From Christensenellaceae bacterium Phil1 (GTDB lineage: Bacteria > Bacillota > Clostridia > Christensenellales > CAG-138), in contig MSGS01000044.1 in assembly GCA_001940855.1 (NCBI GenBank), forward strand, positions 20,215 to 84,214: a stretch of DNA of 64,000 nt, in the 5' to 3' direction. The notes below the pieces were generated by a model. That model was given only the letters and a program-made list of their open reading frames with translations, made no database searches and was not told where the DNA came from. Positions 8,340 through 48,115 of the stretch are shown here, one piece after another. The translations under genes were made by a program, and so were the position numbers. Each line of letters opens with the position of its first letter. Positions within the stretch are counted from its first letter, which is position 1.

Positions 8340-9791
8340 TTACAGGAATAACCTTGCCTTCTCCCCGCTCAGCTTTTCCACCTTGGCGATATATGTGCTT
8401 ATCTCCTTTGGCGCAGGCACGCGCTCCACGCGGCGCGCCGCATCGTATACACATTTGGTCATTGCTCCCGCCCCGTGGGACATTATGGCGGTGGTATCCT
8501 CCATCATGTCTATGTTGTATACGCATTCCGTGCCGGGTTTGGCGTAACCCACGTTTTCAAGATTGCCGCTCATATATTTCTGGCGATACATATAATACGG
8601 CCGCATGCCGAGCCGCGCCGCGGCTTCGCTGCCCATGTGTACCATGTGCTCTACCTCCTCCGCCTCCGGCATTGGGTATTTTTCCCCTTCCGTAACAAGA
8701 CGGCTTGAACGCTTGAGCGCAAGCGTATGCACGGTAAGGTTTTCGGGCGAAAGCTTTATTATTTTATCAAGCGTATGCTCCATGTCCGCCGCATGCTCGC
8801 CGGGAAGGCCGGCTATAACGTCCATGTTTATATTGTCAAAGCCCATGTCCCGCGCCATGTTGAACGCGGCTATAATGTCCGCGCTTTTATGGCTGCGGCC
8901 TATCAGTTCAAGCGTTGCGTCGTTCATGGTCTGCGGGTTTATGGAAAGCCTGCTCACGCCGTATTTTTTCAGCACACCCAGCTTTTCTTTTGTTATCGTA
9001 TCCGGCCGGCCTGCTTCAACGGTGAATTCCCCATTGAATCCCGCGTATGCTTCAAGCGCGTGGGCAATAAGGCCGTCCAGCTCATCCGCCGTAAGCACGG
9101 TTGGCGTGCCGCCGCCTATGTACATTGCGCGTATTTTGCGGCCCGCCTGCTTCAATATGGCGGAGCCAAGCGTTATGTCCTTCTTCAGCGCGGCAAGATA
9201 GGCCGCCATGTCCGTCTTTTTAGTGCGCACCTGGGAGGCAAAGCTGCAATACAGGCAGCGCGATGCGCAGAACGGTATACCTATGTATATATCCGCATCC
9301 TTTTCCGTTTGGCTATCAAGAATGGGCTGCTGCACGGCGTTTATTGTCTTTGCCAGGGCAAGCTTCTCTTCGCTCACGTCAAAGTCCTGCTGCATCATTC
9401 TTATCGCTTCCGCTTCGCCGTGGCGCATGCGCAGCTCCCTCAGCAGCCGCGTGGGCCGTATGCCCGTAAGCGAGCCCCACGGCGGCATGAAGCCGTATAC
9501 GTTTGCCATTGCCCTGAACGCCGCTATTTTCACCGCGCGCTTTTCGCGCCGCTTTATTTCAAGCGCGTCCGCTCCTTGCGGTATAACGCAGTCCCATTCA
9601 TAAACGGCCATGCCTTTGGCTACATTCACCCGTGCGCAGGCATGGCGCTCAGTACCGCCGCCTTCAAGCGTAACGCAAACGTCCGCCGCGGCATTCTCCG
9701 CCTCCGTTATTTCCTCTTTTGCCAAAAATAGCCGAAGCTCGTCGGCTATATCGGCTATATACTCGGTTTTGTTCGTGTATAGGCTCATCAT
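8340..9791 (-). CDS. hemZ: Radical-SAM oxygen-independent coproporphyrinogen-III oxidase-like protein (HemN/HemZ family)
   Basis: 483 aa. Radical-SAM motif IPFCASRCLYCSF. Long N-terminal extension typical of the HemZ subgroup. The start overlaps the stop of the upstream MBL gene. Confidence 0.78.
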   Translation of the reverse strand: MMSLYTNKTEYIADIADELRLFLAKEEITEAENAAADVCVTLEGGGTERHACARVNVAKGMAVYEWDCVIPQGADALEIKRREKRAVKIAAFRAMANVYGFMPPWGSLTGIRPTRLLRELRMRHGEAEAIRMMQQDFDVSEEKLALAKTINAVQQPILDSQTEKDADIYIGIPFCASRCLYCSFASQVRTKKTDMAAYLAALKKDITLGSAILKQAGRKIRAMYIGGGTPTVLTADELDGLIAHALEAYAGFNGEFTVEAGRPDTITKEKLGVLKKYGVSRLSINPQTMNDATLELIGRSHKSADIIAAFNMARDMGFDNINMDVIAGLPGEHAADMEHTLDKIIKLSPENLTVHTLALKRSSRLVTEGEKYPMPEAEEVEHMVHMGSEAAARLGMRPYYMYRQKYMSGNLENVGYAKPGTECVYNIDMMEDTTAIMSHGAGAMTKCVYDAARRVERVPAPKEISTYIAKVEKLSGEKARLFL

Positions 9792-17332: not shown

Positions 17333-17362
17333 TTGACACTCGATATAATTCGACATTATAAT
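17333..17362 (+). promoter_or_regulatory. Near-consensus sigma-A promoter of the small-peptide transcript
   Basis: TTGACA (17333-17338), 18-nt spacer, TATAAT (17357-17362). Predicted start near 17369. Confidence 0.65.
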
Positions 17363-17368
17363 AAAGCT

Positions 17369-17621
17369 GGTGCCTGCCAAGCACGGTAGACGGTCGGCCA
17401 CACTCCTGCCCTATTTTTAGAGGAAAGGAGGTGACCCGAAGATGAGTTGGGGAGAGCTTTTTGCTTTTCTAATGTTCGTCTTGGAGCTTCTCAAGTTCTT
17501 CTGGCGAATTCTATGCTCCGTTATAGGATTCATGTCCAAAAAGAGAAGTAACCGTCACTCCGCCAAGTAACGGTTATTCCTAATTACCAAATCTCTTGGC
17601 CGACCGTCACCGGTAGGCACC
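17369..17621 (+). repeat. Inverted-repeat arms (17369-17400 and 17597-17621) that would close the small-peptide mRNA in a 25-bp 5'-3' helix
   Basis: GGTGCCTGCC pairs with GGTAGGCACC (10 bp, one G.U). GGTAGACGGTCGGCCA pairs with TGGCCGACCGTCACC (15 bp, one bulged A). Confidence 0.8.
17442..17570 (+). CDS. 42-aa hydrophobic peptide with a basic tail; candidate type I toxin
   Basis: Below the track cutoff. AAAGGAGG lies 9 nt upstream of ATG 17442. Translation: MSWGELFAFLMFVLELLKFFWRILCSVIGFMSKKRSNRHSAK. An anti-SD CACTCCT (17401-17407) faces the SD. Confidence 0.5.
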   Translation: MSWGELFAFLMFVLELLKFFWRILCSVIGFMSKKRSNRHSAK

Positions 17622-17627
17622 CTTTGT
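17537..17627 (-). ncRNA. Candidate ~90-nt antisense RNA covering the 3' UTR and last codons of the peptide gene (copy 1 of a two-member family)
   Basis: Minus-strand promoter TTGCAT (17662-17657), 17 nt, TATAAT (17639-17634). Hairpin TAACCGT/ACGGTTA (17549-17576) followed on the minus strand by CTTCTCTTTTT. Ends are approximate. Confidence 0.5.
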
Positions 17628-17665
17628 ATATTCATTATATCGCAAGCGTTGCATTTATGCAACGT

Positions 17666-18121
17666 TTATATTTCCCGCCTCTCTGCCTTTAACCCCAGCG
17701 CCGTGGCCTGCTTTTCGGGATAGCGCGAATAGTAGCTTATGCCGCGCGCGGCGTATTCCCCGCGGTGCTTGCCGTAATGCCTGCACCATATAAAGCTTGG
17801 CGCGCCTACCATGATAAGATACAGCGGCCCCAGCAGCAGCGATTGGAGCGTATGCCCGTATTCGTGCGATGCTATCTCCCGCGCACGCTCGCGGCTCGTA
17901 TCCTTATGCGTGCCGACGAATATGAACATGCCAAGCGACACGCAGCCAAGCCAACGCATATATTTTGGCACAGAGTCGATATCGTATTCCGTAAGCACGG
18001 CGCAGCGATAAAAGCCGCGCTTCTGATTGCCCAACAGCAGCATTGCAATAAGCCCCAGCAGGCTTTGCACCACGCCCCATGTGCATTGAATGAATATGTA
18101 GGCTATGCGTTTGAGTTTCAT
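17666..18121 (-). CDS. Membrane protein with an HExxH (HEYGH) motif; putative membrane zincin, function unknown
   Basis: 151 aa. N-terminal TM helices, SHEYGHTLQS followed by another hydrophobic segment. No family assignment I can make with confidence. Confidence 0.6.
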   Translation of the reverse strand: MKLKRIAYIFIQCTWGVVQSLLGLIAMLLLGNQKRGFYRCAVLTEYDIDSVPKYMRWLGCVSLGMFIFVGTHKDTSRERAREIASHEYGHTLQSLLLGPLYLIMVGAPSFIWCRHYGKHRGEYAARGISYYSRYPEKQATALGLKAERREI

Positions 18122-19809: not shown

Positions 19810-19959
19810 ACTGCCCCCCCTTCCATGTTTTACGCTTTATGAATACAAGCTCCGTAACAAGTATAACATATCTTTTATGCGCTGACAAGCAACGGGTGTT
19901 ACATATTGACTTATGACTTCATTCGGGAAAGGACGCGGTATGACGGTAATTTATACTGC

Positions 19960-20005
19960 GCAAAAACCGGCAGCCCTTACGAGCCGCCGGTTTATTATGC
20001 TGTTA
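19960..20005. repeat. Terminator-like 46-nt direct repeat, copy 2 (terminator of etfA)
   Basis: GCAAAAACCGGCAGCCCttacGAGCCGCCGGTTTATTATGCtGTTA, lying 9 nt beyond the etfA stop. Confidence 0.85.
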
Positions 20006-20013
20006 GGTGAAGC

Positions 20014-21120
20014 TTACTGCTTCTTGGCCTTCTGCGCCTTGATGGCCTCGGTCAGCATCGGGGTGACCTTGAACAGGTCGCCGCAGATACCGTAGTCGGC
20101 AATCTCGAATATGGGCGCGGATTCGTTGGTGTTCACAGCGATTATGCATTCGGAATCCTGCATACCGGCCTTGTGCTGTATCGCGCCGGAAATACCCAGG
20201 GCAATGTACACCTTCGGGTGAACTGTCTTGCCGGTCTGGCCAACCTGATGGTCGGCGGAGAGCCAGCCGTTGTCTATGACCGCGCGGCTGCCGCCGACAA
20301 CGCCGCCCAGAGCCTCGGCCAGATCCTCGGCCAGCTTGATGCCCTGCTCAACGTTCTTGCTTATGCCGCGGCCGACGGAAACTATGAAGTCCGCGCCGAC
20401 AAGGTCAACTATCTTCTTGGCAGCCTTAACGACTTCCACAACCTCGGTATGCACATCCTCCGCAGTCAGCTTGACCTCGGGACGGACGATTTCCACCGCG
20501 TCGGCCTTTGCCTGATCGAACTCGGCCCTGCGCATAACGCCGGGGCGCACAGTTGCCATAGCAGGACGGAAACGGGGGCATATGATGGTGGCCATAAGGT
20601 GACCGCCGAACGCCGGACGGGTCATCTTCAGGTTGCGGTCCTCCATATCGAACTTCATGCTGTCGATATCAAGGGTGGAGCTGGCGCGCAGGAAGTCAAG
20701 GTACTTGGGTACGTCAACGTCCAGATGCGTGCAGTCCGCGCAAAGGCCGGTGTGCAGCCTTGCCGCGCAGCGGGGGCCAAGATCGCGGCCGATGGTGCTT
20801 GCGCCGATAAGGAACACCTCGGGCTTGAGCTCCTCTATCGCGTCGCATATCACCTTGGCGTAAGCATCGGTGGTGTAATATTTAAGAAGCGGGGATTCGC
20901 AAAGGACTATCTTGTCCGCGCCGTAGCCGGCAAGCTCCTTGCAAAGGCCCTCTACATTGTCGCCAAGCAGCAGACCGCAGAGCTTAACGCCCAACTCGTC
21001 CGCAAGCTTACGGCCTTCCGAGATAAGCTCGAAATCGGTGGGCATCAGTTTGCCTTCTCGCTGCTCGCAAAATACCCAAACGTCCTTAAAGGCGGCTAAA
21101 TCCATGCTGTTGTAAGCCAT
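20014..21120 (-). CDS. etfA: Electron transfer flavoprotein, alpha subunit
   Basis: 368 aa. VWVFCEQREGKL N-terminus, and the FAD-binding C-terminal segment YIALGISGAIQHKAGM. Confidence 0.93.
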   Translation of the reverse strand: MAYNSMDLAAFKDVWVFCEQREGKLMPTDFELISEGRKLADELGVKLCGLLLGDNVEGLCKELAGYGADKIVLCESPLLKYYTTDAYAKVICDAIEELKPEVFLIGASTIGRDLGPRCAARLHTGLCADCTHLDVDVPKYLDFLRASSTLDIDSMKFDMEDRNLKMTRPAFGGHLMATIICPRFRPAMATVRPGVMRRAEFDQAKADAVEIVRPEVKLTAEDVHTEVVEVVKAAKKIVDLVGADFIVSVGRGISKNVEQGIKLAEDLAEALGGVVGGSRAVIDNGWLSADHQVGQTGKTVHPKVYIALGISGAIQHKAGMQDSECIIAVNTNESAPIFEIADYGICGDLFKVTPMLTEAIKAQKAKKQ

Positions 21121-29714: not shown

Positions 29715-30542
29715 TTATTTAAGGGGCTTGAGGGAAAGGATTTCCCTGGCCTCTGCGGGGGAAGCGATGCCGCGGCCGAGTTCGTTGGCCAGGCGGACTA
29801 CCTTCTCCACCAGTTCGCCGTTGCTCTTTGCAAGCACGCCGCGGCTCAGGTACAGATTGTCCTCAAAGCCTACGCGCACGTTGCCGCCCATGACTATTGC
29901 GGGCGCGGCAAGAGTGAAGGCGTTGCGGCCTACGCCGGTGGCGGTCCAGGTGGAGCCTGCGGGTATGCCGTTCACCAGCCATGCAAGGTTCTGCACGGTG
30001 GCGGGGGTGCAGCCGGGTACGCCCAGCACGAAGTTGAACTGCATGGGTGCGCCGGGGACTTCGCCCTTCTTGGCCATGGTCAGAATGGTGTCCAGATGGC
30101 CCATTTCGAAGCACTCGTATTCGGGCTTTATGCCGTTTTCGATCATGCGCTTGCCGAAGGCACGCATGGTGGGCATGGTGTTATCGAATATTTCGTCGCC
30201 GAAGTTGCAGGTGCCGCAGTCAAGCGTGGCCATTTCGGGGAACAGCTCGGTGGGCTGCAGGCGCTCCTCGGGCTTCATGCCGGTGGCGCCGCCGGTGGAG
30301 GGGATCATTATAACGTCGGGCAGTTCGGCGCGGATGGCGTCCATAACTACGCGGAAACGTTCCCTGTCCTGGGTGGGGGTGCCGTCGTCCTCGCGCACAT
30401 GCACGTGTACTATGGCAGCGCCGGCGTTATAGGCGCTCTTAGCCTCGCGCACCATTTCCTCTACGGTGTAAGGTACGTTGGGATTCTGCTTCTTGGTAAC
30501 TTCTGCGCCGCAGATGGCGGCGGTGATTATAAGCTTCTCCAT
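29715..30542 (-). CDS. kce: 3-keto-5-aminohexanoate cleavage enzyme (BKACE/DUF849 family)
   Basis: 275 aa. MEKLIITAAICGAEVTK ... AAIVHVHVRED is the typical BKACE TIM-barrel N-terminus. Confidence 0.85.
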   Translation of the reverse strand: MEKLIITAAICGAEVTKKQNPNVPYTVEEMVREAKSAYNAGAAIVHVHVREDDGTPTQDRERFRVVMDAIRAELPDVIMIPSTGGATGMKPEERLQPTELFPEMATLDCGTCNFGDEIFDNTMPTMRAFGKRMIENGIKPEYECFEMGHLDTILTMAKKGEVPGAPMQFNFVLGVPGCTPATVQNLAWLVNGIPAGSTWTATGVGRNAFTLAAPAIVMGGNVRVGFEDNLYLSRGVLAKSNGELVEKVVRLANELGRGIASPAEAREILSLKPLK

Positions 30543-31142: not shown

Positions 31143-31183
31143 AAAAGCAAAAACTATCGACACGGCAAATGCCGCATCGATAG
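31143..31183 (-). terminator. Expression-platform terminator of the lysine riboswitch
   Basis: Minus strand: CTATCGATGCGGCA-TT-TGCCGTGTCGATAG (14 bp including 2 G.U), followed by TTTTTGCTTTT. Its 5' arm is the 3' strand of aptamer helix P1. Confidence 0.75.
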
Positions 31184-31350
31184 CTCTTCATCCAATAAAC
31201 AAGATGACAGTCGCAGCGCGCTGGCCGCTGCGCCCAAGCATGGCGCCGGGATGAGCAGCCGTGCTTTCGGCGGAAGTCACATTCGCCTGCGTCATCGGGC
31301 CTCCCGCCCTTATCATTCGCATGGTTACCTTAGCCTCCGCGCCTCTATCG
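31178..31350 (-). promoter_or_regulatory. Lysine riboswitch (L-box) aptamer
   Basis: Minus strand: CGATAGAGGCGCGGAGG ... GCCGAAAG ... CTGTCA ... GGATGAAGAGCTATCG. It carries the conserved AGAGGCGC, GCCGAA(A/G)G, CUGUCA and GAGAGCU-like boxes in the canonical order, with P1 CGATAG/CTATCG. Confidence 0.85.
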
Positions 31351-31374
31351 TTTCGATATTCAATTAACGAATAT

Positions 31375-39202: not shown

Positions 39203-39251
39203 AATAACGTAAGAAAAATCATCATACGGAATGCTGTAAGGGAGTGCTTTG

Positions 39252-39301
39252 CGCGCGGGCAGAAACCAGGGCTTACGCCTTGTCAGCCGAGCGTTTTTTT
39301 T
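39252..39301 (+). terminator. Terminator-like element inside the ssnA leader (candidate attenuator)
   Basis: CGCGCGG (39252-39258) can pair with CCGAGCG (39287-39293), enclosing a GGCttacGCC mini-hairpin. T8 (39294-39301) follows immediately, 44 nt before the ssnA ATG. Confidence 0.4.
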
Positions 39302-47351: not shown

Positions 47352-47473
47352 CGTTAGCTACCGCCTTTCATTGTTTGGGTTAATTGTACAACATAAATCT
47401 ATTCTGAGCAATACTGTTTACATTATTCATCTTTTGGGTTACGATTAGTACATAATTCATGCGGAGGTACACA

Positions 47474-47893
47474 ATGTTCAAGGCGGTTTGGAGCATAGGC
47501 AGGGACGGTTTTGACAGAATAGAGGCCCTTAGGCGCGCGGCGGGCGCATGCCCGCAATGCATAAGCGACGGCAAAGATGCCTACGCCGGTCATGTTTACG
47601 TTTGCGAAGAAACAGGCGAACCCATAGCCGCGGGGCGTATGTATCCCGACGGCGACGCGCTTATTATAGACCGCATTGCGGTAATGCCGCAGTACGATGC
47701 AATGCCCTATGCGGAGCTTGTGCTGAGGATGCTGCTTTTTAAGGCGCAGGAGCTGCCGCAGCGGGAAATACGCATAAACTGCGAAGAAAAACGCTTTGCA
47801 TTGGTGCGGCGCTTCGGCTTCGCGCAGAGCGATGCGCACACCTTCACATGCAGCCGCAACGCGATAGTATGGGACAGCGAGTGCAGGCATTAA
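47474..47893 (+). CDS. GNAT-like small acyltransferase-fold protein (degenerate motif A)
   Basis: 139 aa from ATG 47474 (GGAGG lies 6 nt upstream, inside the track extension). IIDRIAVMPQYDAMPYAELVLRMLLFKA resembles a GNAT beta4-alpha3 segment but lacks the canonical Q/RxxGxG. Confidence 0.55.
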   Translation: MFKAVWSIGRDGFDRIEALRRAAGACPQCISDGKDAYAGHVYVCEETGEPIAAGRMYPDGDALIIDRIAVMPQYDAMPYAELVLRMLLFKAQELPQREIRINCEEKRFALVRRFGFAQSDAHTFTCSRNAIVWDSECRH

Positions 47894-47974
47894 AAAAGTA
47901 ACCGCTAAAAGGCAAAGCAGCGGTTACTCCTTATAACTTCTCTTTGACCGGCCGTCACCGGCAGGTGGTTTTCT
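47892..47974 (-). ncRNA. Candidate ~83-nt small RNA, orphan paralogue of the antisense RNA at 17537-17627
   Basis: Minus-strand promoter TTGAAA (48009-48004), 17 nt, TATAAT (47986-47981). 9-bp hairpin GTAACCGCT/AGCGGTTAC (47898-47927), followed on the minus strand by T6. It aligns with copy 1 over about 90 nt, including the identical core CCGTCACCGG. There is no minus-strand CDS it could terminate. Confidence 0.55.
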
Positions 47975-48115
47975 GTATTTATTATATGCTGCCCGCCGCG
48001 CTTTTTCAAGGCCGATATTCATTTATTTTTAGGTTTATATTCTACCATAAGCCAGCCTTTTATATAATTACAAAAATGGGCAAAAGCATGTCGTTTTTTA
48101 TAAGTCTCGATTATA

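Follow-up and report, generated by a model that had tools for sequence, protein, structure and literature searches.

Between a GNAT acetyltransferase gene and gap, the genome of Christensenellaceae bacterium Phil1 carries a short minus-strand unit, at 47892-48009, that is built like a small-RNA gene of the antitoxin type, with its own promoter and terminator and with no toxin ORF beside it. (Coordinates are those of the window, by which we mean the whole stretch of 64,000 nucleotides that was analyzed.) The question that this locus raises is what an antitoxin without a toxin might be: a gene in its own right, one copy of a repeat, or the remainder of a larger module. A preliminary description of the window had taken it for the orphan member of a two-member family and for a free-standing paralogue of the antisense-RNA gene at 17548-17640, which we call copy 1. 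The gene-like character of the unit held up in our analysis; the size of the family and the free-standing status did not.

Anatomy of the minus-strand unit

The elements at the site, and the complete paralogous locus with which it is compared, are as follows.

47459 to 47893, plus strand: upstream GNAT acetyltransferase gene, an ORF with a match to Pfam PF00583
47892 to 47974, minus strand: predicted antisense (antitoxin-type) RNA of ~83 nt, its putative start lying ~7 nt downstream of the -10 box
47892 to 47927, minus strand: intrinsic terminator of the RNA, with a 9-bp core of GTAACCGCT (47898-47906) and AGCGGTTAC (47919-47927) and a run of six U residues (47897-47892)
47947 to 47966, minus strand: 5' hairpin of the RNA (SL1), 3 + 4 bp with one internal mismatch and a GUGA loop, from the fold and from covariation in the family
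47950 to 47979, plus strand: hairpin with a T-rich tail, terminator-like in its presumed role
47981 to 48009, minus strand: promoter of the RNA gene, with TTGAAA (48009-48004), a 17-nt spacer and TATAAT (47986-47981)
17333 to 17672: complete paralogous locus with a promoter, a 5' box, a 42-aa peptide ORF (17442-17570) and a convergent antisense RNA

The promoter claimed for the minus strand is indeed there, scoring 11/12 in a consensus scan, and its -10 box is aligned with the TATAAT of every other copy of the family. Also visible in the sequence, as the preliminary description had it, are a hairpin followed by six T residues on the minus strand and the lack of a T-run on the plus side. The predicted fold of the 83-nt RNA, at -29 kcal/mol (z = -3.5 against 200 shuffles), consists of a 5' hairpin and a terminator, the stem of which extends to 15 bp in the fold, beyond the 9-bp core. 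The family covariance model (R1) gives 81 bits for 47892-47974 (E = 9e-17).

The U-run of the RNA terminator overlaps the GNAT stop codon (47891-47893), and the first terminator-like site that a plus-strand transcript would meet past GNAT lies beyond SL1, at 47950-47979. This plus-strand element is likely the 3' end of the toxin mRNA in the full loci described below and, at the orphan locus itself, likely the 3' end of GNAT read-through transcripts.

A reading of the ORFs agrees with the earlier statement that neither a peptide ORF nor a 5' arm accompanies this copy in this genome, and no small (<60 aa) hydrophobic peptide ORF was found at 47459-48009. We considered whether the RNA might itself code for a peptide and rejected this: two minus-strand ORFs, of 34 and 32 aa, have their starts at the -35 box or farther upstream, in sequence that the predicted transcript does not include.

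A family of small RNAs beside hydrophobic peptide ORFs

The kinship of the unit with copy 1 is real, if looser than first described. The two had been said to align base for base, at about 80% identity; our alignment has 66 identical columns out of 97 (68%) and three gaps. Its global score of 31 is far above chance, given that 2000 random segments of the window gave a mean of -16, a standard deviation of 5.4 and a maximum of 5. The shared core noted previously, CCGTCACCGG, is present in both, and the two RNAs also have the SL1 loop GGUGAC in common. Copy 1 is not the nearest paralogue of the orphan, however, as a genome-wide blastn search with the orphan copy in its own 2.85-Mb assembly found further copies on C58, C60 and C44 (at 12067), all of which rank higher. 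The -35 region of the orphan stands off the family consensus, with TTGAAA and a GC-rich spacer versus TTGCAT and an AT-rich spacer.

A covariance model built from five copies finds seven full-length copies in this genome, rather than the two of the original proposal. Four of them adjoin a hydrophobic peptide ORF of 32 to 42 aa that ends at or inside the terminator hairpin: copy 1 (MSWGELFAFLMFVLELLKFFWRILCSVIGFMSKKRSNRHSAK), the C58 copy (MTWSEFFAFLMFVMELFRSFLRILRFVVKLIKKKSNRPRQR), the C57 copy (MVTWALFFACGSFIVGLLRLFLATLEFVMKLQKRK) and the copy at C44:11860-12170, which belongs to a different peptide class (MMILSIIIDLAGLVIDFIRLISELSANKANKK). The last of these is a third complete locus on the window's contig, ~8 kb upstream of the window start, and has a homologue at G011:C49, where G011 is another genome of the genus. 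The other three copies, at 47892-48009, C60:101545 and C32:11471, have no peptide ORF. Across the genus, the element occurs in 4 of 16 species genomes, with 13 copies in the 2.1 Mb of G011, three in G009 and one in G003. Having read the toxin side of each, we count 16 full and 8 toxin-less or degenerate copies among the 24 in the genus. At the level of the taxonomic family, the model matches in 8 of 151 genomes and 6 of 50 genera, and the weak matches in other genera also adjoin short hydrophobic ORFs. Among named assemblies, a pattern search of the genome collection matched only two others ("bacterium isolate H07624-L1_cleanbin_000016" and "Clostridiales bacterium W0P13.014"), the short SL1 pattern hitting mostly chance sites in high-GC genomes. 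As a separate observation, contig C7 of G011 holds three copies (9673-9763, 19957-20047 and 30228-30317) spaced ~10.28 kb apart, two of them with identical toxins (MMQWSDFFAFLTFIVALFRLFLKVLQIALTFGKKKSNRRGRM), which may reflect a ~10-kb tandem duplication or a repeated element that carries the module.

The structure of the RNA is conserved with the marks of covariation. Over 27 copies, 92.7% of the cells of the two-hairpin structure are paired and 10 of 22 pairs have compensatory changes, while sliding the partners by one to three columns as a control leaves 26-54% paired. For SL1 taken by itself, 98% of cells are paired and compensatory changes occur in 2 of 7 pairs; in the terminator they occur in 8 of 15. 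All seven copies in this genome have a -10 box, and usually a -35 box too, at a fixed distance.

The preliminary description had allowed that the motif might turn out to be a widespread terminator or REP-like repeat, and two observations could be taken that way: the hairpin alone matches weakly on the opposite strand, and a different, truly high-copy repeat adjoins two of the other orphans. A generic repeat lacking gene character is nonetheless hardly credible, with no more than seven full-length copies in 2.85 Mb, a -10 box in every one, hydrophobic peptide ORFs beside four, matches confined to a small fraction of the genomes of the taxonomic family, and no copy and no sign of phage carriage in a scan of viral contigs. 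The copies form a small-RNA gene family, not a REP-like repeat.

In the complete members of this family, a sigma-70-type promoter would give rise to an mRNA of ~265 nt for the hydrophobic peptide, which has a lysine/arginine tail. Past the end of the ORF, a "3' box", the plus-strand complement of SL1, is the predicted pairing partner of the mRNA 5' end, and an adjacent anti-SD segment is expected to pair with GGAGG; the predicted folds of the toxin mRNAs of copy 1, the C58 copy and a sister-strain allele (see below) have a 5'-3' closing helix of ~25 bp and a paired SD. A convergent RNA of ~85 nt would span the 3' box and the final codons of the toxin and would end in a hairpin and U-run overlapping the toxin stop region. 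This antisense RNA is complementary to the 3' box, the linker and the last toxin codons of the full loci. By analogy with bsrG/SR4, txpA/RatA and the RCd RNAs of C. difficile, it would form a long duplex with the 3' region of the toxin mRNA, leading to RNase III decay, to a refolding that shuts off translation, or to both. From these parallels, we infer that toxin and RNA together constitute a type I toxin-antitoxin module of the 3'-overlapping convergent class.

In hok/sok and aapA1/IsoA1, the 5' and 3' ends of the toxin mRNA pair, and once the 3' end has been processed the 5' region of the mRNA is bound by the antitoxin. The full loci resemble these systems in that the extreme 5' end of the mRNA is predicted to be closed by pairing with a 3' element and the SD to be masked, but differ in what the antitoxin would recognize: in this family it is predicted to be complementary to the 3' strand of the closing helix. 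Other parallels come from the 3'-overlapping type I systems of Bacillus and C. difficile, in which the RNA promotes RNase III decay and, in the case of SR4, also tightens SD sequestration (PMC3834814, PMC3531473, PMC6563280). With systems of the bsrG/SR4 type (bsrE/SR5, txpA/RatA, yonT/SR6) and with CD2517.1/RCd8 of C. difficile, the family has in common a small hydrophobic toxin ORF, a convergent antisense RNA over the 3' end of the toxin mRNA and a partly sequestered SD, so that RNase III decay and/or a translational block would be expected. As in that class, the antisense RNA has its own promoter and terminator and, in the full loci, overlaps the last toxin codons. The peptide ORF, on the other hand, is found in the four paralogous loci and in the sister-strain allele but is missing at 47892-48009. 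The family also shares no peptide or RNA sequence similarity with the bsrG/SR4-type systems or with CD2517.1/RCd8, and compared with them its RNA is shorter (~85 nt, two hairpins) and its mRNA is predicted to be closed by a long 5'-3' helix, the 3' strand of which would be the antitoxin target.

Database searches placed neither the peptides nor the RNAs in a described family. Pfam (three family peptides, E<=1) and NCBIfam (five family peptides, E<=10), which model Fst/Ldr, TxpA/BsrG, Hok, Ibs, ShoB, TisB and other toxin families, gave no relevant match, and Rfam 15 gave nothing at gathering score for the two window copies, the best permissive match being ohsC_RNA at 17 bits (gathering score, 50; E = 3.7). 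The likeness to known type I systems is therefore one of architecture only. In a set of 5.8 billion proteins, the copy 1 peptide matches only five near-identical, unnamed clusters. Elsewhere in the window, Rfam reports a lysine riboswitch (31173-31355, minus strand, 75 bits) and an ssnA RNA motif (39224-39271, plus strand, 51 bits) above gathering score.

Allelic states of the GNAT-gap site

A metagenome scan anchored on the conserved gap promoter yielded 23 human-gut contigs, 18 of which were long enough for the site to be read. Five (L125, L127, L128, L132 and L136) have a full form, state B, in which GNAT is followed by a TTGACA-18-TATAAT promoter, a 5' UTR with the 5' box, an intact ORF for a 35-aa peptide, MVTWALLFACGSFIVGLLRLLLAILEFVMKLQKRK, the RNA gene and gap. 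The arrangement of the window, the orphan form or state A, occurs in eight (L115, L116, L118, L119, L123, L133, L120 and L129), all with a single junction, GGCATTAAAAAAGTAACCG, and with an extra insertion in L120 and L129. The same junction is also present in genome G011, where the flanks are ~95% identical to the window. In two further contigs (L121 and L122) the site is empty (state E), toxin and RNA both being absent and the -35/spacer sequence kept. One contig (L134), together with the sister species G003, represents a decayed form (state D), with the terminator hairpin absent, the promoter mutated and the remnant below covariance-model detection, and the last two (L126 and L130) have a different gene upstream.

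Full and orphan alleles are closely similar where they can be compared. From the terminator hairpin to the -35 box, the five full-form RNA genes differ from the commonest orphan allele by one or two bases, and full and orphan RNA genes differ by zero to three bases in 121 nt when the three bases of the junction are set aside. In the sister allele, a GGCC-to-GGTC change in the 5' box is matched by a GGCC-to-GACC change in the 3' box, which the orphan still carries. The GNAT gene ends in TAA in the window and in TGA where the toxin is kept or the whole module is absent.

Because sister strains have the full pair, with a complete toxin gene and a near-identical RNA gene, at this same GNAT-gap site, the orphan reads as a toxin-deletion derivative, and the idea of a free-standing paralogue has to be given up. 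With the full pair at the same site elsewhere, the RNA gene intact and the toxin ORF absent, 47892-48009 has the features of an antitoxin-only type I locus. It is probable, on the strength of these strain comparisons, that a type I toxin-antitoxin locus at this site lost its toxin half by deletion and that the unit is the antitoxin half that survived.

The window strain would have lost ~215 bp that held the promoter, 5' UTR and ORF of the toxin. On its left side, the missing segment would end within the GNAT stop codon (TGA to TAA), which now abuts the A-run of the RNA terminator, and the RNA gene would have kept its promoter, SL1 and terminator. A single clean deletion from a sampled full allele was rejected, as three of the seven bases immediately before the hairpin (GTAACCG) do not agree. 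Either the deletion therefore took place in an ancestral allele that was slightly different, or it was followed by another small change. The empty form could be ancestral or could be a larger deletion. After such a loss, the RNA would presumably still be made, with no cognate toxin left to silence in this strain. Its persistence would be understandable if loss of the toxin is harmless and loss of the antitoxin alone lethal, and any remaining benefit would be immunity against a re-acquired cognate toxin.

Several other features of the site deserve mention in their own right. When window 47459-47893 is set against L125, L132 and L134, GNAT proves to be a mosaic: in a block at ~47745-47800, strains have one or the other of two very dissimilar sequences. 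One of the two matches the divergent G003/L134 lineage, and this indicates homologous recombination between lineages. A MITE-like insertion of ~280 bp, with terminal inverted repeats of ~25 bp (ACCATCAGTTGAYAAGRRCACACAAG...), separates the RNA gene from the gap promoter in L120 (~520-800), L129, L121, L122, L126 and L130 and is absent from the window (at the point ~48045). In G011, on contig C14 (L045), a run of 30 N stands in place of the ~450 bp that hold GNAT in the window, ~36 nt upstream of the orphan RNA gene, and may reflect a gap in the scaffold or the record as well as a true deletion; a search of G011 with the GNAT protein gave no match.

Deletion at this junction is not the only way in which the toxin side has been lost. 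At C60, C32, G011:C2 and G009:C31b, a dispersed repeat replaces the toxin side right up to the A-run of the terminator. This repeat is roughly 130 bp long, has GC-rich hairpins (e.g., GCTCCCCGGCCGGGGAGC and CCTCCCTGTAGAGGGAGG) and gives more than 100 blastn matches in the 2.85-Mb genome, often at contig ends; the sites read are C60:101640-101980, C32:11550-11770 and C44:12365-12573. In the G003:C31 copy, the toxin ORF is reduced to its C-terminal half. All eight toxin-less copies match the RNA model over its full length, a result to be read with the sampling in mind, since the model detects only intact RNA genes and represents the transcript without its promoter. The promoter was read in the three toxin-less copies of this genome and is present in all three, and a blastn search found no truncated fragments of the RNA gene in this genome.

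Antitoxin-only loci have precedents in E. coli. About 30% of genomes are orz-only, the toxin ORF having been deleted at the zor/orz site, and the orphan OrzPmg is expressed, as seen on northern blots (PMC11264685). The present site is like orz-only (OrzPmg) and antitoxin-only shoB/ohsC in that the antitoxin RNA is kept and the toxin ORF deleted, and in that full and antitoxin-only alleles coexist at one chromosomal site, with the orphan allele frequent (PMC11264685). It differs in belonging to an unrelated family and phylum and in its geometry, which is a 3'-end overlap of convergent genes rather than, as in zor/orz, an RNA over the toxin 5' UTR with divergent genes. Expression has also been demonstrated for OrzPmg, whereas the RNA at 47892-48009 is a predicted one. 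Orphan type I antitoxins are thus already documented, and the site described here adds a further case, from a family of uncultured human-gut Clostridia that has a narrow distribution and had not been described.

Possible roles of the orphan RNA

Among seven orphan alleles, variable sites number 1 in the 118 positions of the RNA gene, 13 in the 108 of the spacer to gap and 26 in the 435 of GNAT. The single variable site in the RNA gene, 47951, toggles between G-C and G.U in the SL1 stem. The low diversity of the RNA gene gives a Fisher p of 0.0004 against the spacer and, with 18 variable sites in the final 300 nt of GNAT, of 0.019 against that segment, in a comparison in which the sample is small, all orphan alleles come from one junction, and recombination is evident in GNAT. 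This pattern is suggestive of an orphan under constraint rather than a mere remnant, but it can also arise from a single, recent origin of the deletion allele. That the orphan is kept by selection, either as an immunity gene against the sister-strain toxin or as a new antisense regulator of the 3' end of the GNAT mRNA, seems doubtful to us.

RNAduplex predicts 14 to 20 contiguous pairs, at -87 to -94 kcal/mol, between the orphan RNA and the 3' regions of the four resident toxins (17442-17570, C58, C57 and C44:11860-12170), about half of the approximately -180 kcal/mol of cognate RNA-toxin pairs; with the 17442-17570 mRNA, it forms 14 contiguous pairs, no better than with the other three. A blastn search of the copy against the whole genome for other trans targets returned nothing but the paralogues and chance matches no longer than 25 nt. 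The only perfectly complementary partner left in the strain would be GNAT transcripts that read past their stop codon.

Three other readings of the orphan can be weighed against these data. One is that it acts in trans as an antitoxin, damping at least one of the four resident toxin mRNAs by partial pairing. The predicted contiguous pairs with each toxin 3' region, the GGUGAC loop common to the orphan and copy 1 RNAs, and the RNA gene as an island of low diversity all speak for this idea, and SR6 offers a precedent, acting on both yonT and yoyJ (PMC5848175). Yet every resident toxin has its own perfectly complementary RNA, the four pairing energies are so alike that no target is privileged, and a single recent deletion could also account for the low diversity. 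Moreover, G003 and L134 carry a decayed remnant and two strains have lost the RNA gene altogether, so that any benefit would appear to be dispensable. We regard trans action as unlikely for these reasons. It is also conceivable that the RNA was exapted after the loss of the toxin as a cis-antisense RNA of the GNAT mRNA, its hairpin ending the transcript or the duplex tuning decay. Such a role would fit the overlap of the GNAT stop codon with the RNA U-run, the lack of a plus-strand T-run at the first hairpin and the position of the first terminator-like plus-strand site at 47950-47979, and it would fit the conservation of the RNA gene among orphan alleles. GNAT transcripts probably span the whole RNA gene and would be perfectly complementary to the RNA. 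The argument is one from position, however, and GNAT is intact where the module is absent or decayed and so does not need the RNA; we consider exaptation quite improbable.

The remaining reading is that the unit is a silent fossil, in which the motifs look intact because the deletion is recent and the RNA is not made. The small distance between full and orphan alleles would indeed mean that little time has passed, and the -35 box and spacer do depart from the family consensus. Against this stand the quality of the promoter, with its near-consensus score and 17-nt spacing, the fact that the same promoter must protect the sister strains that carry the toxin, and the occurrence of the same orphan allele in G011, where the flanks are only ~95% identical. 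A silent locus thus has a rather small chance of being the correct description. The preferred reading, that of an antitoxin gene left behind by deletion of its toxin, accommodates the gene-like structure of the unit together with the full pair at the same site in sister strains.

Type I toxin-antitoxin systems are hard to find and, to our knowledge, almost unknown in uncultured gut Clostridia. Here, a single site displays the whole life cycle of such a module in human-gut populations, in its complete, toxin-deleted, absent and decayed forms, and so lets one ask, as in a natural experiment, which of the two halves goes first and whether the leftover RNA is kept. For genome annotation, the lesson is that a selfish module can leave behind a clean promoter-hairpin-terminator unit next to a core gene, and that such a unit need not be a dedicated regulator. 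Were the orphan nonetheless to prove to be kept, the 8 of 24 copies in the genus that are toxin-less or degenerate with a full-length RNA gene, through at least three kinds of lesion, would mean that the family shows a repeatable route from a selfish toxin-antitoxin module to a host-owned small RNA.
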